DNA of 58,219 nt, taken from contig QPGO01000095.1 of the NCBI GenBank assembly GCA_008632985.1, forward strand, positions 1-58,219. Reading direction: 5' to 3'. Position 1 is the first letter of the stretch. Every line of letters starts with the position of its first letter. The position numbers and the translations under genes were made by a program. The notes beneath the pieces were generated by a model, which did not search any database, was not told the DNA's origin, and was given only the letters and a program-made list of their open reading frames with translations. This stretch comes from Psammoneis japonica (Eukaryota). Shown here one piece after another: positions 2,750-55,799 of this stretch.

Positions 2750-4300
2750 TGTCTTGTCATGGAGACGCGTCATTAGATTCTTTTTGAATGCTGCATTCGC
2801 AAAAATGGAGCCAACACCATTTGCAATGAACCGGAACTCTACCCAATGGCGAAAGCTGCCACCCAATTCACTTCTTTCAACACCTCGCATACAACATCCC
2901 CAGCAGGTGACATTGACACGCTCTCCACCAAAACTGAGACGAAGCACTGTTCTCTTCAAGCACATCGGGCAGCCCCCACTTCGGTGGCAAGCAATGGTCA
3001 TTGTGCTCGTGCACATGACCTCCATCCTTTTTTGGCATGTGTGACTGGCACACACACAACCTTGAAGTTTGACAAAGCAATTCAGCAGAAACCTTGAGGA
3101 TGACAACAGAGTCAGGTTGGATCTTGTCACCTCCAATGGCATCATGGCCTCAAGCTTCCTTCCTCATTTGTGTTGTTGGCTGTGCAAGCAAACCAAAAGA
3201 TTGTCCAGGAGTTGTTCCAATCCATTGTGACCAAAACAACACAGTTGTTTTTGGACCCCCACTTGCTTCCTTTGGCTCTCAGTTGCTTCATTGGGGGTGC
3301 TCTCCTTTGCCACATCAGCAGCTGGGTTTGGCCTGACATCACCCTCCACATTTGAGAAGAACTTGATTAGATTCTTGATTGTTTCTGGCTTCTCATTGGG
3401 AGCATCAATGACAAAGAACTTCCTGGTCATTGTCATCAGAGCACGAACATCACAAACCTTTTGCGTCTTTACAGCCTGCTCTCAAGCTGCTCAAGCCATG
3501 AACCACCTCGTCTGTTGCAGCCATGCCAGAAGAGCAGGAGGGCATCTCCAAAGCCATGCAGTTCAGGGCCAACTTTGGATCGCCAGTTGGCAATCAGCCT
3601 TTGCGGCCATCACAAGGAAGACACCACACAGTCGCTTGTCCTGTGTGTGTCAGCAAGGGGAGAAATGGGGGGCATTCCCAATCCAAGAAAATGCAGTGAA
3701 CCAAAGTGAAAAATGTTGGGCAAGATCAGACAAGAAAGACAAAATGAGGTTCAAACCACCACACTGAATCGCACCCAAGCTGCTGCTGCTGCCTGCAAAC
3801 ACGCCGCCAAACTGGCACCCTTCCTTTGCTGAAAATGCTGTCTCATGGCAGTTGGTGGTCCAGAAGAGCTTTTGCAACAAGAGGTTTCTGACCCACCATT
3901 TCACTTGGAATGGGGTTTTCAGGCTCGCGATGCTTGTCTTTGTTTGGAGATCTGCACCCCCAAGCCGATGCTGCTCTTCAAACAGCTTTTGGTGCCACGC
4001 TGCTGCCCTGATCCCTTTTCTCAAATCAGCCACACATCAGCGCCATCTTGCACTTCCACTTTGTCCTCCAATGCACCACCAAGCTTTTGCCAAACAACAA
4101 TTAATTGCCATGGTGTTGGGGCTCTTGAAAAGATGGGGCAGCGTGATGTGTGAGTGCGCAGCGGACTTCGCGCGGCGCGCGCAAGGATTTGTGTCATATA
4201 GCACATCAACCCAGTTCAGAACACCTTGTCGCACATCTTTGCACTCCATCGATTGAATCATCATCAGAATCCTTTTGCTCTTTTTTTTTTGTTTCCATCT
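2750..4300. mobile_element. Degenerate repeat/TE-like block, TpA- and CpG-depleted
   Basis: Few TA or CG, excess CA/TG, only broken ORFs. Segment 3851-3956 is homologous to 7881-7985. Boundaries approximate. Confidence 0.55.
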
Positions 4301-4368
4301 GTCATTTTGAATTCTGATGGGCGCCCGAACTTCTTTTGGCTGTTATTTTTGCAATCACTTAAGAGACC

Positions 4369-5649: not shown

Positions 5650-8250
5650 GCAGCTCACCATTTGCATGGAGGCATGGATAGAGGCCTGGCTACATCGATT
5701 GCTTGAAGCCACAAAAGGCAGTCAGTAAGAGAGATAACTGCAAATGCGCATCCATTAATTCCTGCAACTTTCTCCATTGCTTTGCAGACCAGTGAACAAC
5801 TGACACCCCAAAGAAGTCATCCAGTTTGGTGTCACTCACTGAATGCCACAATCCCACACCACTTTTTCCCTGCATCACCTTCCCACAGATGAGAAAACTC
5901 TTTCTAAAGATTCAATCAAATGCAAACACTGCTGGGATGGTGTTCCCCTCCTTCAGCTGGCACCCACACAACAACCTGCTTCCATCCACACCCCAAAAGG
6001 CAATGATGATGTTGCATGCCTCAAGCCAGGCATGCCCAGGACACAGCAGATGGACAAAGCACACATCCCAACTGGTGCCCAGCCTCAGAGAGGGACACAA
6101 TGCCTTCAACAAAGTCAACAGGATTTGCATCTTTGAAGAAGTCAACATCATAAAAGTTGCCCTCACTCACACTCAGTGGGAAAAGCAACCACCCCTTTGA
6201 GGCATGTTCATCCAGCCTCTGCCCATGCTCAATTTTTCTGCAAATGCAGAACCCACCACCACACACAATTCATCCAGCATTTCATGCTGTCTGTTGCCTT
6301 TGTGTGCAAGCTTTCTTGATCAGCAGTTCTGTGTTGTTGCCCTTGACTCTAACTTTGCTCTGCGTGTGGTGCTCTCCAGGTCCAGAGCCAACTCAGCCTC
6401 TTTTGCATGACAAACACTCGTGCTGTTGTCCTCCAGAGACACAGCAGCTCCTTTCCACAAGGCCAAAGAACCAGAAATTGCACTTCATGTGGCATCTTGC
6501 AAGTTTTTCATGCTGCAGAACATGCCGTGCCTTTCAGAGCTGCACCTTGAGGACCCTGATCCACAGGATCCTGAAGAAACAGGACCCCAAGGCCCAAGGT
6601 CACAAGTTGTGGCAGAAAACATCTTTGCATCTAAAAGCAGCTTTGCTTGCAAGAAAAGAGTGATGCTTCAATGGCAGCTGGGTTGCAGACTGAGGAAAAT
6701 GACAACTGCCATGAGGCCTGCTTTGGTCTCATTCCTCCCTCTGCTCTAAACCCGACGAGCCTCAGGGAATGCAGGAGCTTTGGATTCTACCTCCAAGCAC
6801 ACAGCACCACAACAAATGGAGCAAAATCATCCAGTCCAATCAAAACTGCTTGATCTGCTTTGGCAACCAATGTCACTGGTTCTGGCACAGTTGGCTCTCT
6901 GCTGGAAGTTGTGATGGCACTCCTTCTGCCTCTCTTCTGGACGGCAATGGAAAAGTCATGAGGTGCAGCGGCAATTTCAACTTCTTGACTGTGGACAAAA
7001 GCACTTTGCAGGACCTCAACGCAAGCTGCAGGCCAGTGAAAAAAAACGCTTGAAGACCTTGTCTCTTCCATTGCAAAAGAAACATTCGAATCTGTTGGAA
7101 ACACATTTTTCTTTCTTAAAATGGGCGCGTTTCTCTGTGTGCCACATGAAAGAGAAAGTTTCCTGGAGAAGAGATTGTCTCTGGCACAAGGATTTAACCA
7201 AGGAAGCAAGATCCACTGATCAGTCCCTGGTTTCACACAGTGGCTTCTTGTCAGTGCTCCAGCGGAGGATTGGGGAGAGGCCCAGCCAAAATGCTTGCTT
7301 GACATCACAAAACACATGGGAGCAAGCGAGGCACCTCTGCAAGCATGCACCCACTCATTCCTGCAGCTTCAAATGGCAGATGCCCCAAAGAAGGTGTTCG
7401 TCACACCAAGTTCCAGAATCTCGCACTGCTTCTTCCCCATGTCACCTTCCCTCAGATGAAAAAACTTTTTCAAAGACTTGGTCAAATGCAAACGCTGCTG
7501 GGGTGGTGCTGCCCACCTTCAGCTGGTGCCTGTGCAACAGCCTGCTTCTGTCTGCACCCCAAAAGGCAGCAATGAAGCCTGGACAGACAAAGTGCACGTC
7601 CAGGCCAACACCCTGCTTTGGAGAGGGACACCTTCAATGAAGAAAACATGCTTGTTGTTTCCCAGCCAATCTTCAACTCACTCTTCCCTGACAATTTTGG
7701 CTCTGAAGAAATTGAAAAACTCTCTGTTTTCATTGTTGGAGGGCCCAGCGGGTCTTTGGAAGCTGCAAGTGCAATCTTGACATGACAAAGCCACGCCAGA
7801 GGGCTCTGCTCTGTGTGGTTGCTGCTGCCGAGAAAGCTCTGGCCCCCTCCTCTTCCGCCCTGCTCTGCTGCTGTGTGGCTGTTGGTGGTCCAGAAGAGCT
7901 TTCACAATGAGAGATTTTGGAGCCATTGCATTGCTGTGAATGGGGTTGCAAGGCTCAAGATGTTTGTTTTTCTTCAGATCTGCATTGACAGCCACCCAAG
8001 ACCCGGAGCTCCAAAGGGCCAGAGCTCTTCAACAACTCTTTGATGCGATTGCTTGTTTCTCTTTGATCTTAACCCTTCGATTTGCCACAGTGCGCATGTT
8101 AGGGCCATTTTCCAAGGATGCACAATCCACCGATGATGCGAGGTCAAGCTTGTGCGAGAAACGACCATTGCCATGGTGTTGGGCAAATGGCAAACAACAT
8201 TGCCACACCCGGAGCTCGAAATAGCTCGCATGGTCGATTTTGAGCTTTAT
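5650..8250. mobile_element. Degenerate repeat/TE-like block with internal duplication, TpA- and CpG-depleted
   Basis: Nearly devoid of TA and CG. About 5862-6115 is homologous to about 7430-7642 (both translate as ...HLP(T/S)DEKT(L/F)SK...KCK(H/R)CW...QQPAS.(H/C)TPKG). Boundaries approximate. Confidence 0.6.
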
Positions 8251-8354
8251 CGTCAGCCTGCCTGTGCGACCATGATTGAACAGTCTGAAGTCATTGCTTG
8301 ACACATGTGCTCAGCCAAGCATCTCTCATCAACACAGTAATAAGGTTAGCAGCA

Positions 8355-13228: not shown

Positions 13229-14820
13229 ATGACAAAGTCGAGGGTTCTCGCGATCCCAATCTTGCTTTTCATCAACAATCCGGCGAATGCACTTGTTCCC
13301 ACGCATCCTTGTTCCCAGCAAAAGCATCACCCATTTCTTGCTTTGGCATCCACAGCAACGTTGGAGCAAGAAACAATCCAAGAAGAGTCTTTGCAAACTC
13401 CTGCTGAAAAGGAAGACTTAAAATTTGAGTGCGACGAAACGGTTCAATTCTGGAGAGACTTTCAACGAAATGGACTCGAATCGGCAGATTCCAACCTTCG
13501 AGAAATTGCGAGAATCTCCCGAGACTTTGCACAGTCAGGTCCAGACGGCGTGGGTTATTGGTTGGTGAGTGCGCATGGGATATTCTGTTTGCAACAGTGT
13601 GATGTATTGCTTGCGTTACAAAGAATTTGCTTTCTTACATGCTTTTCTGGGCTATGCGCATGCTTTCCTCTGTAAATCGCATGACTTGAACTACTTTGTG
13701 CAGCGCCACATGGGTCGTTCGGGATACTTTTTCGTAAATGCTGCACTCGGGGTTTTGGGATCTCGTCTTGTACAAAGCTTGGAGGGAGGTGCATCAATCA
13801 AGGGCCCAGTTCGAAACTTGGATACTGCTATTGTGTCTCGTTTGGTATTGGAATCTGCGCTTTGTTTTCAACAAGATTACAAGAGGATCCAAGAGGGACT
13901 GTATCCCAAACCCTGGGACATGTATTACAATAGACGACAGGCAAGTCCTATCTACGCAGCTACACAGACGGGTCGATTTCTGAGAGAAGCTATTGATACG
14001 CTACAACGACGAACTCGTGGCACCAGCGAGGACAAGCGAATCAACCTTTCCAATGACGAAATGTCATCCTTTGCCTACCCTGACTATTATCAGACTGCTT
14101 TTCACTATCAGACCAACGGATGGATGTCAGAAGAGTCTGCCAATGTCTATGAGACATCAACCGAAACCCTGTTTGTTGGTCGACAAGATGCCATGCAGCG
14201 GATTGTGCTGCCAGAGCTGGTCAAATTCTCACGGGAACGAAAAAAGACACTCGATAGACCCATCAGGATTCTGGAAATTGCCTGTGGCACTGGACGCTTC
14301 ATGACGTTTTGTCGCGATTCTCTTGCGCTGGATACCAAATACACCGCAATCGACCTGTCGCCTTACTATTTGGATGTGGCTCGAGACAATGACGCCAACT
14401 GGAGAACGAGTCGACAACGAATCGAAAGACAACGCGGCAACAGTAGAGTGGAAATTCCACAAGCTGAACTTGTTCAAGCCAAAGCCGAGGATCTCCCGTT
14501 CCAAGAGGGCGAATTTGATGCAGTGTGTGTGTCTATTTGTTTCACGAGTTGCCACGATCTGTGCGAGCTAAAGTCGCAGCTGAAGCGGCGCGTGTCACAC
14601 AACCTGGTGGGTTGGTTGTCTTTTGCGATTCTGTGCAATCGGAGATCGTCCCATTCTGAATGACAAAATTGGAAACTTTAAAGAGATGAACGAGCCACAC
14701 TATGAAGACTACATTTCGGATGACATCTTTTCTCACTTTGAACGAGCTGGACTTCTTTGTGGAAAGAAGATTGTTGCTTCCACCACCAAGGCGTTAACTT
14801 TTACAAAGCCAACTGTATAA
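13229..14820 (+). CDS. Class I SAM-dependent methyltransferase, probably plastid-targeted (copy 1; intron 13565-13703; frameshift near 14525)
   Basis: Motif I ILEIACGTGRF, AIDLSPYYL, AKAEDLPF, upstream FHYQTNGW. Signal peptide ending ANA-LVP. GTGAGT...CAG intron keeps the frame. Confidence 0.88.
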
Positions 14821-15265
14821 ACGCTTTCTTTGGTAACAAAATGACCGGGAGTTTCTGCTTATTTGTATGCCTAAGAGCTCAACGAGACGTTCGGAGCTGG
14901 AAATGCGATTTGTCACACTTGGAAGTGACAGGCTTGAGAAGTAGATGATACACGAGCCTCGGAGTAGCTCGAGATTGTAATTAGTATTTGGCAGAGGTCA
15001 TGTCTACTGCAAAACTCAATGGTTCAAATTCAAAAGCTCTGCTGCACATAGTACAAAGGGTAATACGGTAGCGCTCAAACATAGCTGTGATATTCCATTG
15101 CCGTTCCTGACCATTCTTTTTTTCTTTATTCCATGCTAATTACCAGGAGTCTCTAATATCATTGGCTTCGATTGTGAACGGTGATTCATACTGATCACTA
15201 GTGGGCTTAGTAGCGGGTGTGCAGGGATATGGAATAGGCACATCATGTGAGCGGGGCAAGGCGCT

Positions 15266-16944: not shown

Positions 16945-18542
16945 GTTGTAATGTCCGATGTTGTTCTTGCATGTTGTGCTGTCTGTTTTGCTACGACGTT
17001 TGCTTGTTGCTTGCGTCAGCACTGGGTGTTTTCGGTGCTCTTACTGAACAATTGAGAGCTCTACTATTTCCCCCGATTTCGCAATTCTCTTCGGCTATAT
17101 CCAAAGCATGAATAAGATAGAGGCGCTACAGGTGCAAAAAGGATGAAAAAGGAAGAAGAGGCGGCAGGAAAATTGAAAGAGAGGCCCGTCACGCCGTCAT
17201 GGTGCTTCGCGGCTTGGGATGTCGGCATGTCGCGCGCTGTTGAGTAAAATTGTTATCATGTATGGCCTCGTGCACTGTTCGAGGCCGGGGCGTGAGGCGG
17301 GCAGGCGAGCGCGATCGCGATGCGAGCATCAGCACGCGATGCGATCGTCACACACAAAAAGCCAACGCGGCAGTCAGAAGCCATTGCAACACAAACATGG
17401 CCAATGCAATCATGCACCTTTCTATTTTGACACATCAAAGTGGCAGCTCCATCAGAACAACATGCTGTCACTGGGAGAGACAGCCAGATTGCAGCAGGAC
17501 TTTTTTAGTTCATCTCCACTGCCGACAAATGGAGACGCTCTTGATTGGCGCGCAAAACCCACCCAGCCAAAAATGAGGCCAGCACAAAAAATTTAAAAAC
17601 ATCATGTCACACAACAATGTGTGAGCAGACCATCTTTCATAACTTTGAGCAATTGGAGCCTGTCTTTGTGTGAAGCTGTGTGAGGAGCCCAGAGGATCTC
17701 CTCTCTGGCAGCTCTCTCTCTGCGAGGCACTGCAAGCCAAACTTGCTCACCCCTGCCCACATTGGAAGAACCAAGATTGCCATGTCCAATGCCAAAGTCA
17801 ACTCAAACACCACAAGCAAGACACAGAGGGGCTCCATCCAAAACCTTGGGACACATGTTGTAACACCACTTGGTGAGTCCCTGTTGTGTGTGTTGCCACT
17901 GAGATCAGAGCCAATTTGTCAATGAGGAAGCCACCTTGTGATGCTGCCCATCTGTGATGAGTCCATGCAGTGGTGAAGATGATCTGATTCATCTTTCAAG
18001 CATCATCAAAAACCACCCTTTTTTGTCAAAACAATTGGTGTTGGGGATCACTCCTCCAATGCTTGCAAAGCATGTCAGCTTTTAATGCCCCCCACTCATC
18101 AGAGCGCGAAATGTGGTGATCCTGACCACCCTTCTCATGGGCAATTTTTAACACTGTCACAGGCACAAATGCAATGCTTTCCTTTTGAGAGAGTTGTGTA
18201 GAACGTGATTTTTTGTCATGTGTCATGGCATGCCTTTTTTCACCATGGGACCCCTCCTTTGCCCATGGGACCCCTCCCTTGGCCATCAGATTTCCGTCAC
18301 TTTTTACCTTTTGAAAGCGATGTTCAAAACGTTTTGTTCAATGCTAAATTGATGCTGATCATTGCGATGCATTGGTTTTAAGAAACCTTCCATTTTGTGC
18401 ACTGGTTGTCAAATGAAAGGTCAGATCACAAAACAATGATCCTTAAAATGCTCCATTGAACCTTGTGACTGTTTGCATTGAAACCCACTGCATTGCTCAT
18501 TCTCTTTCCATTCTCACACTAACAAAAGCCTCCGGCACCTTT

Positions 18543-19777
18543 TCACACCGCAGCTCGCTCAACATCTGCATCTACACTTGCATTGCTTCCCGCATCACTT
18601 TCCTCCTCCTCTTCCTCGCTCTCCTCATCTCCTCTGTTCTCGTCCGTTGCCTCTTCCTCCTTCTCCTCATCGTCACTTGAAAGCTCTGTCGTTGCCTGTG
18701 TTCTTGCCTCCTCCACCGGCTTTTTCTTTCTTTTTGATCCCTTGCCTCTTTCGTCACTCTTCCTTTTTCTTGCCTTCGCTGTGCCATGTGTTGAACTGCA
18801 TGCCCTCCTCACTCAACCTGTCTTTCTTTACTTCCGCAAGCAGTTCGTTGAATCGCAATGTCCCTGCATCCTTCCACGAGTCTCGTTGCCTTGACGGGTC
18901 CACGCACTTGGGTGTTGGTTCCAACTCTTCCTCATCCTCTTCGTCCAAGCCTCCCCCCGCTCCAACAGTCTTGTCATGACGTGCCTTGTGCTCCCCAACA
19001 CTCCCAGCAGTTTTCCAATGTCAACAGCGCTAGAGCCTCATCGCTCGCTGCAGCCAGACCGGTTGCCTTCGTCTCACCCGACTCAACCTTCCTTCTCCAT
19101 GTCGTGGTGCTCTTCGTGAATTTCAGGATGTTTTTGTAGAGCCAAGCACATGCTTCCTTGTTTTTGCGCTTGTCCTCCACAATCGTTGTCACTGTCTCCT
19201 CCTCCCAAGTTGCCATGAACGGCTCTTCCTCTTCCGCATGATCATTCTTCTTCCTCTTCTTGCCCTCCCTCCCTCCTCCTCTGCCTCTTGATGCCGGCTT
19301 CTTCTGACTGCGCATCTCCTTGGCTTCACTCTCTGTCAACACGACTTCAGCAAATTAAGGTGCAGCAGCGTCAAGTGCAAATGCACTCAACATGCCATGC
19401 ACCACAAAACACTTGCCAGCCGTTGCATTGTTCTTGATCGCCTGAGTGACCGTGCTCCTTTTTGCGTTAATTGCATGCATGACGCACTTCTTTGCCCAGT
19501 CCTCCCACGCTCCCACCCAGTCTCGCTTGCCACAATTGCCACCGGCCATCTTTTTCCTGATGAGCCGTGACACTTTGCCACTGCTTGCCATGTCCGCCTT
19601 GACAAGGAACTTTGCCTTTGGGAAAAGTTCCTTCTGCGCCACCTCTTCCACCTCTCTCTTTGTGGACTGGTGATCCCCAGTGGCTCCCACCTGCACCAAC
19701 GCCGCTGCTGGCCTTGGGCTTGTTGGTTGATCTTCTTTCTTCTTCTTCCTTGCCATTGCCTGTTCCGCTGTTGCCAA
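18543..19777 (-). pseudogene. Element-borne gene with SDEALALLTLEN.W..W and W...G..RFNEL...V..DR motifs; intron 19416-19333
   Basis: The motifs resemble an accessory ORF I recall from stramenopile DNA transposons (unverified). A phase-1 intron with GCAAGT donor and GACAG acceptor joins two ORFs in frame; the gene is disrupted near 18974. Confidence 0.5.
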
Positions 19778-22700
19778 TTGTGGGTGGCTCCATGCCTTGT
19801 GTCCCCAGTCATTCTTGCCGTTGGGAAATTTTCAAACCTCTGATGCCAAAAATCTTGTGCTTCCCACCAATGATTCCTTTTTCTCAAATGCAACACAATG
19901 GAGAATTGACCAAATCTTTTGATGTGCGCACAATTTGTCTAATTCACCACTCCTTGTCATCTTGTGAAAATTTTGAATCCCTGCGAATTCTAGTTCAAAC
20001 CTCTCTCTTTTGCTGCAATGTCAAAATCCACTTCCATGGCACAAACAGCTTGCACAAGCAATTTGCTCAAAACATCATTGTGAAACGTGCACCTGTAAAA
20101 GTCATTTTCACCACAATGAACAAACCCCTCATCTGCTTTAACGACATTCTGGTTTGCTGTTGGTGCCTGAGCACATCCATCCTTTTTGGCGCCAAATCAT
20201 TTTGTCTGGTCCAGTTCGTCATCTCCCTCTAACCTTGCAACTCTCCACCTGATGTGTCACCCGTCGTTGGAACAGTCAGTCATTTTGGTGAAAGCTCTCG
20301 TCTCCGCTCCGACCATTCTCACGAATTCGTTCACTTCAACGCGACGACGTCTCTCCACCCAACGCTTTTCCTCTCTCCTTGTGTGAAAGTTCTCCCGCTC
20401 ACCATCCTCCTTCCTGACAATGTCCAGCATCCATTCATTGACCATCCATGCAGACAACCTGAAGAACTCCATTTGCTCACAGAACCAAAGTCTTTCATGG
20501 TTGTCTCGCACGATGTCATGCTGGAACCACTTCGCCAGTTTTAATGCATCGCACACAATGCCCTTCTTGTCCATTGCCAGTCCGCAAGTGCCTCCCCTCA
20601 CTGATGTTTCTCCCAACGGTCCGCAAGTGCCAGTCTCGTCCATGCCACAGGTCGGCAAGCTGACGCTCGAATGGCGTCTCAATCTCAAAACGTCTCCCCT
20701 GTCAATGACTGGTTTTGTGTCATCACACGCACCCGCTGCAAATTGATCCCTCAGCTCTTTCTCTCCTTCGTTGTGCCAAGCACTGTAGATGCAGCACATC
20801 CTTCCTTGCCTGTCTTGGTGAGTCGCAACGCAGTCCCAACAATCCGGGTGCTGGTGAGCATCAATCCCATGGTTGACGACGCCATTCAACCAGTCCAGGT
20901 TGTCGTGAATTGAGAACATGCCTGTGCTGGCGTGCATGCACTCAATTGCTTCTGTGCTCCAATCACTCACATGTTCGTGCACCCAAACCATGTGGTTGCA
21001 CCTCTGCTTCCACAGTTCCCGCCACTTTTCTTGGATGTCCTCCTCATTCATCATGCAACACAGGTCCATCGCGTCACGGCGCAGGTGCGGGTTAACCGCA
21101 TGTGTGCTGCTCTCAAACTTGATCACAGCTGTGCCCGTTTCATCAGAATGCACCATCCCACCTTGTGGCAAAGATTGCATCAAACGATCCAATTCATCAA
21201 AAGCCGCCTCATGCTCCGATTCCATGATTGGTTGCCTTCCCTCTTTCGTCATGTTTGTCAAAGTTTCAAATCTCCTCCAGCAGTCATTTGGCCAATGCGC
21301 CGTCAAGCGGTCATTTTGTACAACAGCATTCATTGTTGATTGCAACGTTTGTGTCTGTTGCTGCAGTGGGTGTGGGAGCACCCCTCCTGGACTTCTTGCC
21401 CTAAAGCATCACGGCACATCACATCACAACTTACTTTCTCCTTTCCGTAGAAAAACAACCTTTGTAGAACCAACATGAGACGAATCTCACTGAAATCTGC
21501 TCCCCGGTCTGCCCAAGCATCACACGCCACCTTGCGCCATTGTTCCATTAAGTTGGGACAGAACTCGTGGGTGCCGACATTGTCGTTTATCCAGAGAAGC
21601 ACAGCACAGATTTCTTCCACCATTTTGTCAATGAGGTCATTCGCGGTGCCTGCAGACGCAGGGTCTAGAAACACATCGGAAAATTTCTCGTGCGTCAAAT
21701 TGGTGGGGCTGATCCTTCCCACCTGTGGGTCTCCGAACAGCACGCCAAATGTGTTCATCAAATGATCGGCAAAATTCACAAATGGGTCAACACCTTCGCA
21801 ACAAAGGTTGGGAAGATGCACGTCCCCCACACAGTAAAAATGGTGGCATCCGGTGGGATGACCCGCATGGATCGCCAAACGGATGACTCGTTTTGGGTCG
21901 GGCCCAGATCGGCACACAATGTTTTTGAAACGGTGGAGCACTGTGACTGGGGCAGACAAGTGGAAGTCCCTGACTGGGAATGTCGGGAACTTGAGCCGGT
22001 CCATGTGCACCTCAACGCAGGAAGAATCGCCGCCTCCACCAATTGGAACATTGTCCCATGGCCTGTTGTCGTCAAGGGAAAGATGCTTGAACGCACTGCT
22101 GGAATGCGACACATCGGGGTGGGTGGGACCATCGTGTTGCAAGTCCAAGTCTTTAAGTGCAAAATCAAGCTGAGCTTGATTGTGGTGCATGTGAGTGAGC
22201 ACAGGCTTTATGTCGCACTGGTCGTTGCAGCATTCAAAAATGGTGGCTCTGCTGTTGGTGACAACCTTGAAGGACCAGATGTCACCAAAGGCATCCACAA
22301 TGAAAAAACAACCTGCGGCTGTCTTCCTGCAGCGACGCCAGATGCAGTTTTTTTTGTCATGGTGACCATCACAGTCTTGACCCCGGGAAATGCACAATCC
22401 CTGCATGGCAACGTCCTCGCGTTTAAAGAAAAGACAGCCCATCTCCTCGCCCAACTTTTTTTGAGTGCTCCTCATGCCAAAGCGACCAGTCAAATGGTGG
22501 GGGATTGCTCAGTTTCCGCAGCTCTACCTCATTTTCGCAAAGCTGAATCGAGTCGAGGATGTCGGCTGCCATCGCCTTGATTTTGGACGACTCGTTTGCG
22601 TCAAAGTCATCATCGGACTCAAAGACATCAAGTCCGCAAGTGGCCTTTGGTTCAGCCAGTTTGGCAGAACCAGGCGTCTTTGGGTGACATGCTCTCCCTG

Positions 22701-24631
22701 CACAACCGAACTTCATCCTGCGTCCTTCTACGTTTTGAACTGCAACCGGTCCGTCACGATTCAAATCGGACTCTCCCTTCAACAGAACAAACAGAAGAAG
22801 GGCAGGAATGCATGCACGAAGGCACCCGAAGTGCCCTTTGTACAGAGAGCTAGCCTGTCGGGCAACAGAGAGTTCCTCGGAGAAGTGATCAAGGTTGGGA
22901 GGGCACTCGGTTTGAACACAAGATGCGGCGGTGGAATCACATGGAGGTGCATTGTTTGAGAATGTGCGCCAGTTTTCCCGCAAGGACCAGTGTTGGTGGC
23001 TTTGTCAATGATGTGCAGGTGTGACAAATGAGAAGAAACTTCCTTGGTGGTGGTGGGCCGACACTTGGACGGGTCGAAGAGAGCACGGAGTGTGGACTGG
23101 TCCAGCCACGACATGTCGTTGGGGTCGCTGGGAGGAGACGCAACCACGGGAAGATTGGCTGAAACAGAAGGAGGAGAGGAATGAGGTTGGGATGAAGGAC
23201 CTTGGGAGGTGGAAGTGGGTTTTAGGTTTTCCACAATTTCTGAGAGTGACGGAAGGTCGGCAGTGAGAGTGCGGTGTGCCTCCCTGGATGACGGAACATT
23301 GCCAGAAAGCAAAGGAGGTGCTTGTTTGTTGCGAGATGGTGGCTTGGCCTTCTTGTTGGGAACGGTCAAGGAAGGCTCTGGTGGGTCGTGAACAATCATG
23401 GGGTGTGAGAAGAGACACTGAGACAACAGATGCCGGCAAAAAGGTGGAAGGCGCGAGGTGGGGGGGGGGTTGCTTGCCATCGTACAAACAGGTGCCATCT
23501 TTGTGGGTCCTCCTAATTTTGCGTTTGGTTTTGGAGTTGTAGATTCGTTTGTTGTCGTCTTCCATGCAGTCGGCCCTCTGATCACGCATTCTGCAATGGA
23601 GCATTGTGAGCTGCTTGCTGCACCCAGGTTGGATGCCAATTTGATCCTTGGGACAACCCTTCCCAAATTCGTGATTCAACATGGAATTGATTTTTTCTTC
23701 ATGAGCCTCACGGCGTGCAAGGGAATCGCCTTGCATCATCACTGTGTTCTTAATGTCACCGGATTGGTCAGCAAGGAAACCTTGATCTTGTCCACCTGGG
23801 CACCAGGATTGCCAGTGTCGCATGCAACCAGAAAGCTGTTGACAAAGAGGCGCCATTCCTTTTGGGTTTTGACATGACGGAAAATCTTCAAGAACCAACA
23901 GTCCATGTCCTTGGGCTTGCACTGAACGCAACACATGACGATGTCAGTGACAAAACAGGCACTGTGGCAGTCTTGGGCTCAATCGTTGATCAAACTTTGG
24001 AGACTTTTGCACTGTAAAAATCGGAAACAAGGCTTGCCGGATAAAGGATTGTTTGGGTCGTCTCCGGTGATGATCGCACAAACAAATTCCACCATCACCT
24101 GGATGTTGCGGTGGAGAAGCACACGGTTCTGCTGTTCTTTTTCTGTCTCTCCGGATGTTTTGGAGAAATGCAGAGCCTCCTTGAGATTTTTACACCGCAG
24201 GACACATTCACCTTTCACTCGGCGGGATTTCTCAATGGACCAACCACGAGTCATGATGCAGGACCAAATGTCGGGGTGGCCAAGAGTTTTCCTTGCAACA
24301 TCATTGGCGCGGATCACTTCGGCAACACAAGGAACATGGCGCAACTTCGGCTTGTGACAAAGGAAGGGAAGAGCAAGGAATTCTGGAGAGGGGGTCCAAT
24401 TCGTCGACTCCAAAAACTGCTTTTTGGAGGCACGCGTTGCAGTTGTGCTTTTGAGCTTGGGTTCGAATGATTCGAGTCCAAAACTGTTGGTGAAACATTC
24501 CATTTCATCAAAATTGCAGTCCTTGGAAATTTGGAAAGAAGGGTCGGGGTCGACCTCGTCGTGAGACAGGGTAAAGTCATTGGACGCCATGGCCAACAGT
24601 CAGATGCCGATTCACGTAGAATGCACAGGAA

Positions 24632-24688
24632 TCACAACAGTGCACCCTCTCATCAAATGCCATTTGAGGAGAGGGTGCACTGTTGTGA
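24632..24688. repeat. Near-perfect 28-bp inverted repeat (hairpin/cruciform)
   Basis: tcacaacagtgcaccctctc-a-tcaaatg c catttga-g-gagagggtgcactgttgtga: one mismatch, 1-nt spacer. Confidence 0.9.
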
Positions 24689-25139
24689 AATGGGTGGAGT
24701 GTTGCGCATGTAGAAAAGGTGCCAAAATGCAGGTGGGGAGCTGTTGGCTGGAAAACTGGTGGGTGCAGGTGGAAACAATGAGCCAAGCACTCGTGTGGCC
24801 AACTTGGGCGTAAAAGAAATTGCATGGTGACGTGGTGACGCAAGGCTGCGGTGGAGCCATTGAAAATCACCATCAAAGTTGACGTTTCCATGAATGTGTG
24901 AAAATTTAATCAACAGAAAATGCATTGTTCAACAACAAATGAGATGTTGACAGTGTTTGGCAAATTTAATTCAAAACAAAATGGCGACAATTACAGACAT
25001 AAAAAGGCAACACCAAATTCAAATTGACTGCAACATTTGAAATTGAATTTGACTGACAACACCATGCTTTTGTCAAATTAAATGTTCCAAAATTTCCAAA
25101 GGAAAGTGAACAACACCACATTGCGGCCTCTGATGCTCG

Positions 25140-25995
25140 CAGGTCATCAAAATGCCATGCAGCAGATTGTGCTGCCAGAGTTTGTCAAATTTGCCAATGT
25201 GTGCAGGAAATCAGACCAACTGATGTTCTTAAAATTGTGCATGGTGCTGGATGCTCCACAGTGCTTTGTCAAAAAGGTGTCTTTCACTGGATGCAAAATG
25301 CACTCCTCTGCAACTGGCCTGTGTTTCACCTGATCACCCGGGTGTGTGGCAAGAGAGGATGACAGCACCAGCCGGATGGAGAGAGAACACATTGACAGCA
25401 AATTGAAAGAAAACACAGCTCAATCAACAGCAAATCAGACATTCTATTCACCTGTTGAACTCATCCAAGCCAAAGCTGAGCATCTGTCATTCCAAGAGGG
25501 TGAATCTAACACACAGTGTTGTGGGCCCCATTTGATGCACGAGTTGAACCAAAATGTGTGAGCTTAAGTGGCAGCTGAAGCAGAGCGTGTCTCACAACAG
25601 TGTAGATTTGTTGTCTTTTGCAATTGCATGCTCAGAGATCGTCCATGAATGACAACACTGGAAATTTTAAAGAGATGAATCAGCCACACTGTGAAGATTG
25701 CATTTCAGATTATCATGTCTTATCTCACTTTGAACGAGCTGGACTTCTTTGCGGAAAAAGGTTGTTGCTTCCACCACCAATAAGGCTTTGACTTTTACAA
25801 AACCAACTGTGTGAACGCCTTCTTTGGAACGAAAATGAAATAGAGTTTCTGCTCATTTGTGCAGCAGGCCTATGAAGTCAACGAGACGTTCGGAACTGGA
25901 AATGTAATTTATCACACTTGGAGTGACATGCTTAAGTAGATTGTATCCGAGCCTCGGAAGTAGCTCCAGATTTGAATTGGTACTTGGCAGCGGTC
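25140..25995 (+). pseudogene. Decayed 3' fragment of the SAM methyltransferase gene (copy 3), including 3' flank
   Basis: Aligns to about 14180-14998 (NAMQQIVLPEFVKF versus DAMQRIVLPELVKF; QAKAEHLSFQEGE versus QAKAEDLPFQEGE) and to the 3' UTR of copy 1. It has stops and indels, and the 5' part is replaced by the TpA-poor element. Confidence 0.85.
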
Positions 25996-26269
25996 TAAAG
26001 TAGGATTTTCATTGCCGTCCTGTCATCTAGGATTCTATCAATCCCCACAATCCATGAGAGTGCCGTCGTAATCCGTGGGTATAGCCATTCCCGTCTCTGC
26101 AACTCTGAGCGAGAATTCCGAATGAACCTCACCGCGACTTGGTCGACACAAGAATGTGACATGCGTGTGATCGAGCCGGGAGGAGTAGTTACACGAATGC
26201 CCGTGGCAAGCTTGAGGGATGCGCCGTTGCTTATCCACTCAAAACAACCAATGGATGGATACCAAACGT

Positions 26270-28482: not shown

Positions 28483-29143
28483 AAACGCAAGCCCAGCGAC
28501 AGTTCAAGAATGGAGATACAAAGGACACCGTTGTTTTGAGAGATGCGGGTTATAGATATAGAGAGACTTTGGATACCTCATTTGTAGCAATCACGTTTCA
28601 TAATTAGCATCATCTGTGATTGTCAGCTGTCCCCGATAGAGGCAAGCAGTGTCGCTTTAAATGGATTTTTGGTCGAGTCTTAGCCCTTCAACAACCGGAG
28701 ACCTCCACACTCTGAAATAAGCTAAGACATTGTCGATCGAAAGAGAACGTAATGGTCACGTGTATGTATTCACATGTTAAACGGAGCAGCCCACGTGTTC
28801 GACTCCTTTCAAATAAAAGGTAGAAAGTAGCTACTAATTACTCTAATTTGAAATTCCAGTTTGCCGCGGCGGGACGATGCGATGCAACGAAGCTGGTGTG
28901 ACGTTTTCAGTCGTGAAGCGGGACTGTTCCCTGTAGCTGTACGTATCGTCGTACTAAAGCTAAGTCGTGAGACAAATTGAGTAAATTTCTTATCCAGACT
29001 TGAAGATATCAAAACAAGCTTCACTCAGCACGTCGTCTCCAGTCGTGCTTCACCTACCGGTACGACTCTTCCAAACACGCGCCATTCCCCTTACACTTTA
29101 TGTATCAACCACAACTGCCGGTTAGCCAACATCGAAGTCACTA

Positions 29144-29982: not shown

Positions 29983-31625
29983 ATGGCAAAGTTGAGGATA
30001 GTGGCAATCCCATTCATGCTTACCATTCCAGGGTCGCTGTCCTTTGTCCCGGCTCATAATGTTAAGATGAGGCAGGGTTCATTTCTTCCTTCGACACTGG
30101 CATCCACAGCTAGGTTCGATCTAGAGAAAGCAATCCACGAGGAACCGATCGAGGTCTGGAGAGCCTTTCAACGAGATGAAGATGGCTTCGAATCTACGGC
30201 GACGTTACACCCAGAGAATGCAAGACAAGACGTTTCATCGCAAACTCCTGCTGAAAAAGAAGACGTAAAATTTGAGTGCGACGAATCAGTCCAGTTCTGG
30301 CGAGACTTTCAGCGAGACGGCTTCCAATCTGCAGATTCTAACCTTCGAGAAATTATGAGAATCACAAGAGATTTTATGCAGTCGGGTCCAGACGGCTTGG
30401 ATTATTGGTTGGTGAGCAGGAGAATGAGGGTGCAACTTGTGTTTTTGCGCAATTCGCTCTCTTACACACATGCTCTTTTTTGCTTCGATGCTTTATACTT
30501 TGTTCATAGCGTCACATTGGTCGCATAGGTTACTTTTTCGTTAATGCTATTCTCGGGATTCTGGCCTCGAGCCTTGCACAACGCTTCGAGGGAAGCGCAA
30601 CCGCAAAAAATCCATTTCGAGAATTGGATATATCAATCGTATCGGAAACCGTTTTGGAATCCTCGCTTTGTTTCGAACAAGACTATAAGCGAATCAAAAA
30701 GGGACTCTATCCGAAACCTTGGGACATGTATTACAACACTCGGCAAGCAAGTCCTATTTACGCTGCCACTCAGACGAGTCGATTCATCAAGGAAGCCATT
30801 GCTACCCATCAGCGACGAGTCCATGGCACCAGCAAAGACAAGGCGATTCACCTCTCTAGCGACGAAAAGTCATCATTTGCCTATCCTGAGTATTATCAGA
30901 CTGCCTTTCACTATCAAACCAATGGATGGATGTCAGAACGGTCTGCCAATGTCTACGAAACATCAACGGAAACCCTATTCGTAGGTCGGCAAGATGCCAT
31001 GCAGCGGATTGCGCTACCAGAGTTGGTCAAATTTACCAAGGAACGCAAGAAGTCACTCGACAGACCTGTCAACATTCTTGAAATCGCATGCGGCACCGGA
31101 CGCTTCATGACGTTTTGTCGAGATTCTCTTCCACTGGATACGAAATACACCGCAATTGACCTGTCGCCTTATTATCTAGATATGGCTCGAGAAAATGATG
31201 CCAACTGGAGAACATGTCGTCAACAACTCGAAAGAAAACGGCACGAAAGCGGAGTAGACATTCCAGAAGCTGCAATTCTCCAAGCCAAAGCGGAGGATTT
31301 GCCATTTCAGGAGGGTGAATTTGATGCAGTGGTATGCAACTACTTGTTTCACGAGTTGCCACGAGCGATTCGAGCTCAAGTGGCATCCGAAGCAGCACGT
31401 GTCACTCGACTGGGTGGATTGGTTGTCTTTTGCGATTCCACCCAACTTGGTGATCGTCCCGTTTTTGATGATAGGGTGGGCCGCTTTACAGAGATGAACG
31501 AACCGTTCTATGTTGATTACATTTCGGATGTCGTGTTTGATCACTTTGAACGAGCTGGACTTGAATGCGGAACAAAGATGGTGGCTTCACTTTCCAAATC
31601 ATTGACTTTCACAAAGCCATCTTGA
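29983..31625 (+). CDS. Class I SAM-dependent methyltransferase, plastid-targeted (copy 2, intact; intron 30412-30509)
   Basis: Paralogue of 13229-14820 with the same intron position. GSLS-FVP presequence; ILEIACGTGRF and YLFHELP; spliced frame is continuous. Confidence 0.9.
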
Positions 31626-37099: not shown

Positions 37100-38750
37100 T
37101 TGGGGTTTAATTGATGGCATGTGCAGGTACGCATTGAAGTCAAGCAGACTCTTGAAGGGAGGAAACAAAATGGTGAAAAGGTGAAAGCACAGCGTGCCTC
37201 AAACCGGTTTGTGAGAGAAAATCATGTGTGCCAACGGCTTGAAGGATTTTTTTGTGCTTCTTTGGGTTGAAAGCAGGCAAAGTTGAGCAGTGTGTCGCAC
37301 AACATGTGTCTGGCCATGCATCTCCTGATGTCATGTCTGTGAGAATTCATTTGGGTCTCCCTTGGCACTCGGGCTCACACTTGATGCAAGCACCACAAAC
37401 TCATTCGTGTGACCCTTGACACAACCGGCAAGAGCAAACTCATTCAGGTCATCATTCATTTCTGCACACTGTTTTCATTGGCTGAAAGCTGCAGAGCTGT
37501 TGGCAGTTCTGCTTCCATGAGAATGCTGACACTGCAAAAAATCCTCTTTTGGATGATGAGACATGTCACCCTTGACACTCGGTTTCATTGGGGTGAGTTC
37601 ATTCAAGCCACGTGTCACCCTTGACACTCGGCTTCATGCAGGTGTAAATTTCATTTGGGTCATCACTTGTTTCCACACACTTTGCTCACAAAATTTGCCC
37701 TTTGCAAACATTCATTTGCTTGTCATCAAAACATGTTGCACAGCAATCTCACAATTGCGGAGCTGTTGGCATTTCTGCTCCCCACACAAATGCTGACAAT
37801 GCAAGTGATGCTCTCTGTTGGATGATGAAAACATCAATGCAACTGCAACAAGGGCTCTTAACAGCAGTTTCCACCATTGCATTGAATGCATCCGCCTTGT
37901 GTTTGTCTCCTTTTTGGACAAGGAATCACATGGCGGAAATGCGTCTGGCAAGCTGATTGTTGTTAGTTGACTTCAGATGCATGCAAAATGATGATCAGAT
38001 CACAGCACATTAAGATGTTCTGTGTTTTATGAAGCCAGCGAGGCCTGTTCTTGTGGAACAATTGAAAGCCAAAAATGCATGTGTTTCAGAACAAGACCCA
38101 TTTGTTTGCTGTGTGGTGCTGGGTTGAGCATGAAACTCTTTGACCTGCCACCTCAAATTGGAAACTCAACTTTGCACAACAAAATTGACGAGCCAATTGC
38201 CTGATGACAGCTCATTTTGTCATTCTTTTTGCACACACGTGCACAACTTCTGACAAAAATGTCATTGCACTTGAGCCCCAATTTTTCTCTTGCATCTTTT
38301 TTGCTTTTGTCCATGCAAATCATGCTGAGATGACCTGCAGATGACATTGGAGTCTGGTGCTTCAAATGACCACATCATCACATCATCATTTGCATCTCAA
38401 GTGTGCTGGCGCACAAACTTGTTTGCTGTGTCCCTTCAACTTTGACATGATGCTCTCCAAACATCTGCCAGAGCAGGAATCAGATTTCACTGGAGTCATT
38501 TTTTATTGTGGGCATCTGTCCACCCCCCACTGCCGGCACATGCTTTTGGCATGCAAATGATTCCCATGTGAAGATCTCACAATTGACCAATCCAAAACAA
38601 AAAAAATTTGCTCAAACACAGAAGCAACACATTGGTGGCACACTTGGGCAAGAAACTTCATCAGAAGAGGACAGAAAATTGACAAGCTGTGAAGGAGGTG
38701 TTGGAGTTTGAGAAGTCAGTGGGATCACTCCGAGGGTGGCTTGGAGTCGA
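37100..38750. mobile_element. Degenerate repeat/TE-like block, TpA- and CpG-depleted
   Basis: TA and CG scarce; the short motif (g)tcacccttgacac recurs at about 37410, 37565 and 37614; broken ORFs only. Confidence 0.55.
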
Positions 38751-39214
38751 GGGGGTGGCGGGACAGAGGACGAGGAAGTGTCGGCACGAGTTGCTGCAGA
38801 AGAAGGCTGGACTGGTTGATGGCAGAGAAAATTGAGGAGCCAGTCAAAGATGAGGTGCCACGTCCAAGAAGCTCATCCCGGGCACTGCTGAGGCGAGCCT
38901 TGGTAAGTTGATTGGGGACTGGTGTGATGGGGCAGTCCTGCTGCGAATTCTGAAGCGAAAATGCCGATTTAGTCGTGTTTGTCGCTCAGAAATTCTTGGA
39001 GCCTCACAGATACTGTAGATTTCCACGCGCGCAAATACTGGTACAGCACAAGCACGTGCTTCTCGTTGGGTGCATCTTCATCACTTGCTCCATTCGAGTT
39101 TCATCTCTGATGAGAGGCAGCCAGCGAATGTAACGACACTTCATCCTTGCGCAGAATCGACAGAAACGAAAAGCCCACAAAGGCGAAACTAGAGTATCGT
39201 TTTCCAAAAAAAAA

Positions 39215-45099: not shown

Positions 45100-47200
45100 T
45101 GCGTGCACATGTCCGACCGACGAGACATCAGCACAAACAAACCTCATTTCGTTCACTCTTCTCCTCCAGGCGCAAGGAAACAGTCTCAATGCCATGCACA
45201 GGTGCTGCACAATGAATGGGAGGCATCTTTGATGCAGAGCACACAAACATGGCTGCTTCATTGACATCAATCAAACCACAAAAAGTCAAAATGAAAAAAA
45301 ATTGCACACACAAAAATGGGGTGCAGTTCATCCCACACTCTTTGGCTGGTTCTTGGAGCTTTGCTGTTGCCGCAACCTGTCACAGGAACAGAAAAGGCCT
45401 GTTCCAGCTCCGGGTGTCCTGCGCAATGCACGCGATCCATCGCTGGCCCATTTTTGCATTTGTGGCACAATTTCCTCCTTCAAAATCGGTTTTTTTCCAA
45501 ATCGAAGGGTGCGCGCGGTGCACAAAACTTTTGCTTTTTTGTGTGCACTGGCCTTTCAATTTTTGAAACAATTGAATTTGAAGAAGTTCAGTGTGCCAAA
45601 CTGCACAGAAAATTGAGCTCTCACATGATGGACTGTGAATCACCTGGGGCTGGAACAGGCCAAAAGCCAACAGCTCACACGCTTCTTTCCTTGGCGAGCA
45701 CATGATGGAGCAGCCCTCCTCTCCCTCCTCCTGTCTGCCTCTTGTGCCTCTCAAGACAATGGTGCTGGACCCTGAAACACCCACAAAACACAGGCTGGCT
45801 TGGCCCCAACAACCACCAATTTCCATCAACTTTGGATCTTCCAAAAAGATCCCTTCAATGAGCTCCAGCTCTGGGCAGGACCTTGCACTGATGCTGGACT
45901 GTGGTGCAAAAGTTTTTTGTCACATGTGCCATGTGTCAAGCACACATGTGTTTTTGCATGTGCCCTTCTCCCAAATTGCTCCACACTCCCTGTTTTGTGA
46001 AGCCAGGGCCTTTTTGTTCCATCCACTTGCAGAAAAAAATTGCTGGGCGTGTTCTTCAGTGCATGTGAAAAATGCTCTGGCAAGCTGAAAATGATGCACT
46101 CCAAGAGTGAAAAAGGAGGTGTGATTGCAAAATTGCCTCTTTTTTCCATTGGCGACAACCAACACATTCATTGCTCAACAACTTTGCTGCGGAGCGTGCA
46201 CACAAAATTCTGCACACAAGTGTTGCACAAAGCCTCACCCAGGGCTTGAATGTGCCCTCTTTCTTCAACTCAACAGCCCCCTTGAGCAAAGCCAAAAACT
46301 CCATTGGTCTCATTTTCCAGCACATGTTTCATGTGGAAGAGCTTTTTTTGGGGGGGGGGGGTTCATCCCCACATTTGCCCTGGAATCACAATGGCATTTG
46401 AACAAGGCCATTCACAGTGTGCTTGTTTTTGAGTGCAAAAATTGTTCATGTTCACACCTGGTTGCACACAAGAACAAGAGCATCAGCAGGCACTGCAATT
46501 GAAGCACAATGATGATGGAAACATCAACATGTTTCTCCAAAATGCAATGGTCTGTCCAGCCACAAACATTTGGTGTGTGTGTGACCTTTGACAAACAACA
46601 AACACAAAACAGATGAGAGTTGGCAGATGAACCATGTCTGTCACAGACTTGTGGTTTGATGTTTTTGCAACAGTGAAGCATGATGAAATTCAGGGAAAAC
46701 AGCACAAATCATGAGCCATTTGGCCAAATTTGAGCTGCAAAAGCAGCAAAGAATGACCCCCCTCAAAGTGAGCCCATGTGCCTTGATTTGTGCCCAGTCT
46801 GTTTGACGTGTGCACTTGGGCAGGCTGCACACAAAACAAGGCCCCTGCAGAGCTTGCGCCTTGAAAATTGACATTGTGTGCTCTCTTCTGGGGTTCTTTT
46901 TCTTGCACTCCAAGCTGCTTGCTCCTTGAATGACAGCAGCAGTGCAGGGGGGGGGGGGGGGGTGCAGAGGTGGCTGTGCAAGAGACTTTGAGCATGAGAT
47001 CCCTCTGGCTCCTCTTTTGTTTGTTCGTTCGTTCGAGAGAGACAGCACGGTGGCTTGAGTTCAAATTGAATCACAAATGCCATCCTTTTGTCCTTGCAGA
47101 GATGATGAGTGCACATTCAGCGAGACACAGCAGTTCAACAAAGCGTGCAATCGGCGAATGAAATCGGAGCTGAGAGGACACACGCCCGCCAAAGGTCTTG
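45100..47200. mobile_element. Degenerate repeat/TE-like block, TpA- and CpG-depleted, with poly-G tracts
   Basis: TA and CG nearly absent; G runs at about 46350 and 46947; broken ORFs only. Confidence 0.55.
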
Positions 47201-55301: not shown

Positions 55302-55799
55302 CCTTCCGGTTTCATCTAAAACTCGTGAGCTTCCGCGTTTTTTGTGACATACAGTAAAAGACACGGAGAAGCAATCACCGCACGGGCAATGTGTTTTGTT
55401 GATTCGAGTGCGAATAGTGATCTCGTGTACAGTGGAGTAGATAGTACCTGACCTACTATTGAAATTTAAAGAGCAGATGTTGTTAAATGTTTTATAGTTG
55501 TTAAACGAATGATTCAATGACAAATTAGTGCTTAATGTTGAGATGACCTCATCGTTAATTAAAATAATCAATAAATGTTCGATTGAGTTAAGCATCCGCC
55601 TTGTCCATTGCTGGTGTCTTGATTTTCCCTCAATTAATGGAATTCAATCCGTCGTTATTTAAATCTCCTTAAATGTTATTTGCGTTAAACAGAGGATTCA
55701 TGCTGTACGGAAAGACAAAGAGTCGCGACATGAGATCGATCGATCACGAGGCAGGGTGAATGAACCGCGTTTCTTCTGCTCTCTGCTCTAGCTAGCCAG

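Follow-up and report, generated by a model that had tools for sequence, protein, structure and literature searches.

Does mutation that affects inserted DNA stop at the ends of the insert, or does it reach into the host DNA on either side, and with what direction and shape? The 58,219-nucleotide stretch of Psammoneis japonica analysed here (contig QPGO01000095.1; the window) raises this question at one locus, where a fragment of an S-adenosylmethionine (SAM) methyltransferase gene lies beside a mobile element in a TpA- and CpG-poor island. A first-pass annotation had proposed that this fragment gives the direction of mutation, and that mutation spreads several hundred bp from the element into host-derived DNA and fades. 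We found that the middle of three tandem methyltransferase paralogues has been split by the insertion of a repeated mobile element of ~7 kb. The element and, on either side of it, ~0.75 kb of host DNA present in single copy have gained TpA to TpG/CpA and CpG to TpG/CpA changes on both strands.

A methyltransferase gene split by an insertion

The fragment at 25137-25995 (copy 3) belongs to a SAM-methyltransferase gene that has two further, paralogous copies in the window, in tandem orientation. Copy 1 (13229..14999, plus strand) comprises the gene and ~180 bp downstream and is supported by Pfam Methyltransf_25/11 and by BLASTN to copies 2 and 3. It served as the unmutated reference, with 2.6-4.6 TA and 4.4-5.9 CG per 100 bp. 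Copy 2 (30192..31622, plus strand), an uninterrupted open reading frame (ORF) of 371 amino acids with Pfam methyltransferase domains, is 76% identical to copy 1 over 1475 columns in BLASTN and served as the outgroup. In BLASTN of the window against itself, copy 1 14178-14999 matched copy 3 25142-25995 at 76.8% over 624 columns, plus a 50-bp piece at 88%, and copy 2 30979-31622 matched copy 3 25137-25808 at 65.9%. Copies 1 and 2 retain their TA and CG. Copy 1 can be read against copy 2 only with two 1-bp frame changes, near 14527 and 14625 (window 14520-14630); either it is a second, unmutated pseudogene or the assembly contains small indel errors. Indels of 1 bp also occur elsewhere in the contigs of the sequencing run described below.

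The left (5') half of copy 3 lies at the other end of the same island (17486..18124, plus strand). It is heavily mutated, and was recovered by tblastn and by a transition-tolerant local alignment. With the proteins of copies 1 and 2 as queries, tblastn found a weak match on the plus strand at 17715-17891, at the left margin of the island. In this match YKRIKKGLYPKPWDMYYN of copy 2 pairs with HKQDTEGLHPKPWDTCCN at 17811-17885 (E 0.004 in the whole window, 4e-4 in 1.6 kb). All four tyrosines in the aligned peptide are now His or Cys, the exact outcome of TA to CA/TG changes in TAY codons. The transition-tolerant alignment joined copy 1 13503-14160 to 17486-18102 on the same strand with a score of 137; none of 46 control windows scored above 109.5. 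The left half holds 5 TA and 5 CG in 617 bp; copies 1 and 2 hold 30 TA and 29-36 CG in 658 bp. The right (3') half begins at copy-1 position 14178 (window 25142). The two halves are colinear and nearly contiguous in gene coordinates, and therefore everything between them is an insertion.

The insert (18125..25109, ~6985 bp) has a TA observed/expected ratio (o/e) of ~0.1 and is delimited by contig breaks at 18124 and 25109/25110. Its copy status was read from the contigs of one sample's sequencing run, probably the window's own source, placed on 16500-26500 at at least 90% likeness. A total of 1891 contigs were placed, 347 at at least 99%, 556 at 95-99% and 988 at 90-95%. Summed contig depth, which by the tool's own caveat is not copy number, was 780-4535 between ~18170 and 25183 and 35-105 outside the insert. 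The contrast shows that the insert is present in many diverged copies, to which the gene halves do not belong. Single-copy contigs cover the left half (17174-18124, depth 31.5) and the right half (25109-25693 and 25728-26178). Because both halves are single-copy while the insert is multi-copy, the host DNA was mutated in place and not carried by the element. The earlier claim that host-derived DNA beside the element is mutated is borne out, and it extends to the gene half on the far side.

These depths bear on the view that ADAR-like RNA editing of element transcripts was fixed by reverse transcription, the gene fragment having travelled with the element. A 5' U preference at edited adenosines, typical of ADAR according to the main text of a recent preprint (10.64898/2026.01.13.699255), would suit such editing. 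The gene halves, however, are single-copy and lie on either side of the insert, so that the fragment was not mobilised with the element. We regard this origin of the locus as very improbable, although ADAR-like editing may have contributed the TA losses common to all element copies.

Direction of mutation in copy 3

A dinucleotide was taken as ancestral where copies 1 and 2 are identical in a three-way alignment. Seven of the eight ancestral TA sites are altered in copy 3 (TG 4, CA 2, GA 1), and six of these eight polarised sites changed from A:T to G:C, giving TG or CA. Ancestral CG was altered at 17 of 21 sites (CA 8, TG 7, other 2), at 15 of the 21 to TG/CA. The remaining 14 dinucleotides were altered at 124 of 375 sites (19-58% each), and Fisher tests against these other dinucleotides gave p = 0.0028 for TA and p = 1.7e-5 for CG. 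Polarised changes number 110 on the copy-3 lineage and 39 on the copy-1 lineage. Where copy 1 has TA and copy 3 has TG or CA in the polarised part, six differences were assigned to copy 3 and one was ambiguous. A CpG to TpG/CpA excess as in methyl-CpG decay is present both at copy 3 and in the islands described below. The TpA process acts on both strands: in the island TG and CA stand at o/e 1.56 and 1.55. The first-pass annotation had read the TA and CG states as ancestral and lost in copy 3. The strings that it quoted are all present where it had placed them, the three-way alignment supports its polarity, and TpA is altered more often than other sites.

Copy 3 is a duplicated gene altered by transitions in a dinucleotide context, as might be expected if a homology-triggered process like repeat-induced point mutation (RIP) had struck it as a duplicate. 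RIP also leaks into neighbouring DNA. Other short duplicates in host segments of the window (28726-28814 and 31714-31808; 50546-52075), 79-87% identical, have normal TA, which indicates that duplication alone does not draw mutation. As in the fungal RIP described in, for example, PMC3318451 and PMC2621366, the transitions at this locus are defence-like and fall in repeats. Fungal RIP is triggered by duplication and changes C to T at CpA, which makes TpA, whereas TpA is consumed here. It is excluded because the direction is opposite and duplicates are untouched where there is no insertion. A RIP-like process in a wider sense is also hardly credible, since copies 1 and 2 and the duplicates at 50546-52075 keep normal TA and since the TA edge does not coincide with the end of the duplicated segment but falls 130 bp inside it.

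A step in TpA loss and a fade in CpG loss

In the three-way alignment and its site table, the right half divides into a part inside the TpA-mutated domain (25110..25865, plus strand; homology is clear from 25133-25142) and a tail beyond it (25866..25995, plus strand). Up to 25860, 10 of the 14 scorable TpA sites are now TG or CA, two are otherwise changed, and two are kept, at 25668 (TTAA) and 25796 (TTAC). Converted sites crowd up to the edge (25810, 25812, 25854 and 25860), and conversion stops near 25865, ~755 bp from the junction. At 25871-25995 five of seven TpA sites are kept, one is TG and one is otherwise changed, in agreement with the return of TA beyond about 25870 noticed earlier. 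The kept sites in the tail are in susceptible contexts (CTAT, GTAT, GTAG and GTAC). The tail also keeps five of seven CG and diverges from copy 1 by 15-18%.

CpG loss has a different shape. All 12 polarised CpG sites up to 25414 are altered, 11 of them to TG or CA. Among the nine at 25540-25735, four are converted to TG or CA, four are kept and one is otherwise changed. Beyond 25735 none of nine is converted to TG or CA and six are kept. CpG loss fades between 25414 and 25740, ending 130-450 bp inside the TpA edge. Distance from the element is smaller for the 11 TA sites converted to TG/CA than for the seven kept (one-sided Mann-Whitney p = 0.022), and smaller for the 15 converted CG than for the 10 kept (Mann-Whitney p = 9e-5). 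When the best cut was chosen by the data and labels were permuted, p was 0.033 for TA and 5e-4 for CG. Left out of the distance tests were five TA rows (one gap, three with copy 2 disagreeing with copy 1, one past the homology), 17 CG rows (one gap, and 16 in which copy 2 lacks CG), and the sites changed to something other than TG/CA (three TA, five CG). The distance trend expected from the first-pass annotation is present. Its picture of mutation that spreads several hundred bp and fades describes CpG well; the TpA pattern on the right half is instead a step near 25865.

A reading without any spreading is that the tail was reset by gene conversion from copy 1 or held by selection, the rest being an old, uniformly decaying pseudogene. 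Tandem paralogues can convert each other, and copy 3 differs from copy 1 by 33-36% close to the junction but by 12-18% at its far end. This divergence does not drop at the TA edge, however, the last three bins being 12%, 15% and 18%. The tail and the mutated stretch next to it are thus of the same age, and gene conversion of the tail does not explain the step. In addition, TA conversions are dense up to 25860 and then cease, and uniform decay would not single out TA and CG. We find this reading distinctly unlikely.

On the left side TA and CG return together near 17370, ~750 bp from the junction. A CpG-dense block marks this edge of the mutated domain (17187..17368; 23 CpG in 17200-17399, 58% GC), and the next three 200-bp windows contain 4, 1 and 0 CpG. 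The block lies upstream of a minus-strand ORF (16438-17040) and is probably the promoter of this neighbouring gene. Three causes of the left edge are conceivable: a barrier, for instance an active promoter; a limit of distance; or the point where the duplicated DNA runs out. The equal reach on both sides may be a coincidence.

The positions of the edges also allow a reading in which the split gene's transcription unit sets the extent of the mutated domain. Chimeric or read-through transcripts would guide the editing, RNA-guided or co-transcriptional, and the edges would be the transcript start and the poly(A) site. The right TA edge lies ~50 bp past the TGA stop codon at 25812-25814 in copy 3, a possible place for a poly(A) site, and the left edge is near where the gene copy first becomes detectable. 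The start codon expected from copy-1 coordinates, however, falls near 17210, ~160 bp left of that edge and in a region where no homology was found, and a one-strand co-transcriptional process should leave a strand bias, in conflict with the balanced TG and CA products. We therefore consider a transcript-guided domain unlikely, while giving it some weight.

Just past the right TpA edge, copy 3 has gained TA relative to copy 1 at two places, from CG at 25905 and from TG at 25910. Both gains are in the ordinary AT-biased direction, opposite to the changes inside the domain.

Islands in the window and the context of TpA loss

The window is ~47% GC, eukaryotic in look and densely packed with genes. 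Profiles in 1-kb steps show blocks with almost no TpA and low CpG, in which TpG and CpA reach 1.4-1.9 times expectation. Two-state hidden Markov model (HMM) segmentation of the window called six islands, 18.5 of 58.2 kb in total. One, at 17348-25634, is the island of the split gene and the insert. The others are at 2779..4157 (TA o/e 0.06, CG 0.29), 5760..8338 (0.07 and 0.23), 37132..38944 (0.05 and 0.29), 45126..47144 (0.00 and 0.23) and 55796..58219 (0.17 and 0.68), the last being TA-poor and open at the window end. TA o/e is 0.00-0.17 in the islands and 0.50-0.58 in host segments, CG o/e is 0.23-0.68 and 0.90-1.06, respectively, and TG and CA o/e in the islands is 1.4-1.8. When all 11 island boundaries in the window were pooled, TA dropped from 34-56 to 8 per 1100 bp inside one 100-bp bin. 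Because the boundaries were positioned from the same data, this sharpness is partly built in. CG in the pool was 22-26 over the first 400 bp inside and 10-17 deeper, and this weaker CpG loss at the margins agrees with the pattern in the split pseudogene. A Pfam scan of 58 stop-to-stop ORFs in the islands found no family, and the islands other than the insert are without recognisable genes.

TpA loss depends on its neighbours. Survival, taken as TA tetranucleotide sites per kb in islands relative to host segments, is highest for TTAA (0.78, 27 sites), followed by CTAA (0.41), GTAA (0.21), CTAC (0.16), CTAG (0.15), GTAC (0.13), ATAA (0.10) and ATAG (0.10). It is 0.02 for ATAC (2 sites versus 232 in host DNA) and 0 for ATAT (0 sites versus 104 in host DNA). 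These values are roughly multiplicative per strand. A strand-specific rule on the 3' neighbour, in which the edited A is followed by T, fits only 4 of the 10 converted TA sites in the right half; the context rule is therefore stated for the duplex tetranucleotide only.

A proposed silenced domain around the insertion

The account that we favour, with moderate confidence in the whole, is a silenced domain seeded by inserted DNA, inside which CpG deamination and a TpA-specific edit both take place. The locus would lie within a domain nucleated by the inserted DNA. One process would be the ordinary deamination of methylated CpG, slow and weaker toward the right edge. The other would be an enzyme-driven, TpA-specific edit of the kind seen in Bigelowiella natans, which would saturate fast and halt at sharp domain edges, ~25865 on the right and ~17370 on the left. 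Chromatin may guide the process, and a DNA-acting adenine deaminase is the leading candidate for the editing enzyme.

Several observations weigh against this account, or against parts of it. The sample is small, with 18 informative TA sites and 25 CG sites at a single locus. No outgroup exists beyond 25790, and the direction of change there is carried over from the polarised part. On the right half, other transitions also become sparser away from the junction (15, 15, 7, 10, 4... per 100 bp), and transversions run 14, 6, 9, 11, 14, 5...; since changes outside TA and CG are denser near the junction, general divergence or alignment noise accounts for part of the gradient. In the left half, decay has gone too far for single sites to be scored. 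Homology of copy 1 13000-13520 to the DNA left of 17486 did not rise above controls, and the left edge may thus be where the duplicated DNA stops.

The remaining difficulties concern the element as the source. TA is equally low in the element core and in both gene halves, but CpG stands at 3.9 per 100 bp in the core (o/e ~0.5-1.0) and at 0.8-1.2 in the halves. With more CpG lost from the halves than from the core, the damage cannot simply radiate from the present element. The insert's copies appear to have most TA losses in common: among the 34 listed of 164 differences between copies, the window has TG/CA against TA elsewhere in three and the reverse in none, and much of the element's TA depletion may therefore predate this insertion. 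In 10 of the 34 the window has TG/CA where other copies have CG, with the reverse in three, and by this comparison CpG decay in the element core appears to be recent and copy-specific. The spread from the element proposed by the first-pass annotation stands as far as the neighbouring host DNA is concerned; the present element as its simple source does not. Because the halves lost more CpG than the core, the silenced state is probably older than the present element copy, as would be expected if insertion was nested or took place more than once. The gene halves have been in a mutating state for much longer than the present core has been decaying, and a nested history is likely.

Relation to known mutation systems

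Diatom transposons carry CpG methylation. The CpG to TpG/CpA changes in the islands, fading at the edges, resemble the methyl-CpG decay of silenced transposons, but such decay leaves the TpA loss unexplained.

The closest known case for TpA is that of B. natans. The main text of the preprint on its mutation-accumulation lines reports 231 mutations, 230 of them A-to-G or T-to-C changes that all occurred at TpA, in integrated viral DNA (Mettrop et al., bioRxiv 10.64898/2026.01.13.699255). According to the same text, the targets are an integrated giant virus and virophage, with 124 TpA-poor clusters in ~95 Mb, and an ADAT2-like adenine deaminase is proposed (10.64898/2026.01.13.699255). A literature search, with subscription journals outside its reach, found no other report of TpA-to-TpG/CpA mutation. 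The likenesses to the B. natans main text are close: TpA changes to TpG/CpA on both strands, and the resulting islands are depleted in TpA and enriched in CpA and TpG. In B. natans the changes are restricted to foreign DNA; the core of the island here is a multi-copy insert, but ~0.75 kb of host DNA on each side is also affected. The target in our window is a multi-copy, transposon-like element and not a giant virus or virophage, and the organism is probably a different one, with a diatom-like genome and 6 islands in 58 kb. The preprint caught in real time a mutation rate raised by orders of magnitude, whereas here mutation is known from accumulated sequence changes alone. CpG, flanks, boundaries and trinucleotide or wider context go unmentioned in its main text (10.64898/2026.01.13.699255). 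In our window CpG is lost from these islands as well, TpA loss follows a tetranucleotide rule under which TTAA is spared and ATAT eliminated, and single-copy host DNA is affected up to a sharp edge. The window thus differs from what that text covers in the likely organism, the kind of target, the coupling to CpG decay and the reach into host DNA.

TpA hypermutation had thus far been reported once, in one chlorarachniophyte and for integrated viruses. The split methyltransferase gene is a natural experiment, a host gene cut by an insertion with two unmutated paralogues as references. It indicates that a TpA process of the B. natans type also acts on host DNA beside insertions. The process acts in place and does not need a foreign or repeated target, and the locus gives both its direction and its sharp limit ~0.75 kb from the insertion. 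It runs beside CpG decay and yet is separable from it. The context rule, with ATAT most sensitive and TTAA spared, is a constraint on any candidate enzyme. If the genome is diatom-like, the process would be spread over distant algal lineages. Protist genomes in general would then be disabling inserted DNA by this overlooked route, and nearby genes would bear a cost.

A TET/JBP-like protein in the element

The insert carries a decayed gene of an unnamed protein family (21444..24500, minus strand), matched in several frames by tblastn of family members P0002, P0088, P0001 and others. Matches at E ≤0.001 come from 83 representative clusters, the best being P0001 (53% identical, E 7.5e-113). The family sources are marine eukaryote assemblies and one transcriptome protein of the diatom Attheya. 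At the 17 tyrosines of P0001 the window has Cys at 6, His at 5, Tyr at 1, Phe at 3 and other residues at 2. Tyr has become Cys or His at 11 of 17 positions, which independently points to the direction of change seen in copy 3.

Pfam gave no family at E ≤0.001 for 13 family members, nor at E ≤0.01 for the island ORFs of the window. A structure model of P0084, a full-length relative, has a pLDDT of 84.3 and two domains. The N-terminal domain matches TET2 (Z 8.8, 193 residues, root-mean-square deviation 4.1) and NgTET1 (Z 8.5, 170 residues, 3.8), where a Z near 8 is borderline by the fold tool's own guidance, and further CcTet (Z 7.2), CMD1 (Z 6.5) and AlkB-type enzymes (5.4-6.6). The model suggests, at a borderline level, a double-stranded beta-helix fold closest to TET/JBP members. 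The C-terminal domain matches the 5-PmdU glycinyltransferase gp46 of phage PaMx11 (Z 7.3) and AGOG-type glycosylases (Z 5.5-6.2). Foldseek on the two models run gave no match at E ≤0.001, and a PDB sequence search with the family profile gave only chance matches to designed helical proteins. An XPG/FEN1-like identity, from sub-threshold ESM Atlas hits on P0001 (0.82-0.85), found no support in the fold search and was dropped. The motif H378-x-D380 is invariant in 26 family sequences. No invariant distal His was found in these 26; a conserved N-x-R (N414, R416) stands where we take the distal His of an HxD...H iron-binding triad to belong. As a lead, the models suggest that the element may carry a DNA-base-modifying enzyme. 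TET/JBP genes on fungal DNA transposons (PMC12730594) are a precedent: the gene in our insert is likewise part of a mobile element, and the N-terminal domain of its protein resembles TET enzymes most closely. In contrast to that precedent, the family here has no Pfam match, its element has no transposase that we found, and the TET-like domain is fused to a gp46/AGOG-like one.

Linking this protein to the TpA changes is pure speculation. The TpA changes could be scars of thymine modification over silenced domains, in which hydroxylation of T by a TET/JBP enzyme would be followed by a transfer as in phage 5-hydroxymethyldeoxyuridine (5-hmdU) pathways, and the modified T in TpA would be miscopied as C; mobile elements may write or erase such a mark. 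The predicted two-domain make-up of the element enzyme, TET-like and phage gp46/PUGT-like, would fit this route. We rate it a long shot compared with the silenced domain and adenine edit favoured above. If it were true, the sharp-edged reach of ~750 bp into host DNA would trace the action of a DNA editor bounded by chromatin in a diatom-related alga. As a possible precedent we considered 5-hydroxymethyluracil (5-hmU) at TpA in dinoflagellates; it was set aside, as the account in PMC11071213 reports no sequence motif.

Further features of the insert and its neighbours

A search of the insert for terminal inverted repeats, long terminal or long direct repeats and a target-site duplication found none that was convincing, and the junction sequences are too decayed for a target-site duplication to be read. 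No transposase was found in the insert, and the ORF at 20260-21408 (minus strand) had no homologues at E ≤0.01. A C/T-rich low-complexity stretch at 18480-19000, with CCTCTTCCTC-like repeats, gives a strong GC and AT skew at 18-21 kb and is where the summed contig depth of the insert peaks (4535). Near the right end of the insert is a hairpin (24632..24688) with 28-nt arms, 96% complementary and 1 nt apart, followed by an AT-rich segment of 408 bp (24699..25106). One contig, of depth 76.6, skips this segment and joins 24698 to 25107, with only 30 letters on its shorter side. Another contig covers 24757-25110 at single-copy depth (36). The 408-bp segment could be a separate, older insertion or a remnant of one.

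Host genes recognised in the window encode a GH20 hexosaminidase, a beta-carbonic anhydrase, a SufS-type cysteine desulfurase, an LRR-Roc-Kelch-TIR protein, an alcohol dehydrogenase and the methyltransferases. The top named relatives of the cysteine desulfurase ORF are from diatoms (58-60% identity), with up to 65% among unnamed sequences, and an ochrophyte alga is the probable source by this evidence. The LRR-Roc-Kelch-TIR protein is encoded by an uninterrupted ORF of 1408 amino acids (39134-43357, plus strand), with LRR, a Roc GTPase, Kelch and a C-terminal TIR. It has the architecture of an innate-immunity-like protein and sits between two mutated islands.

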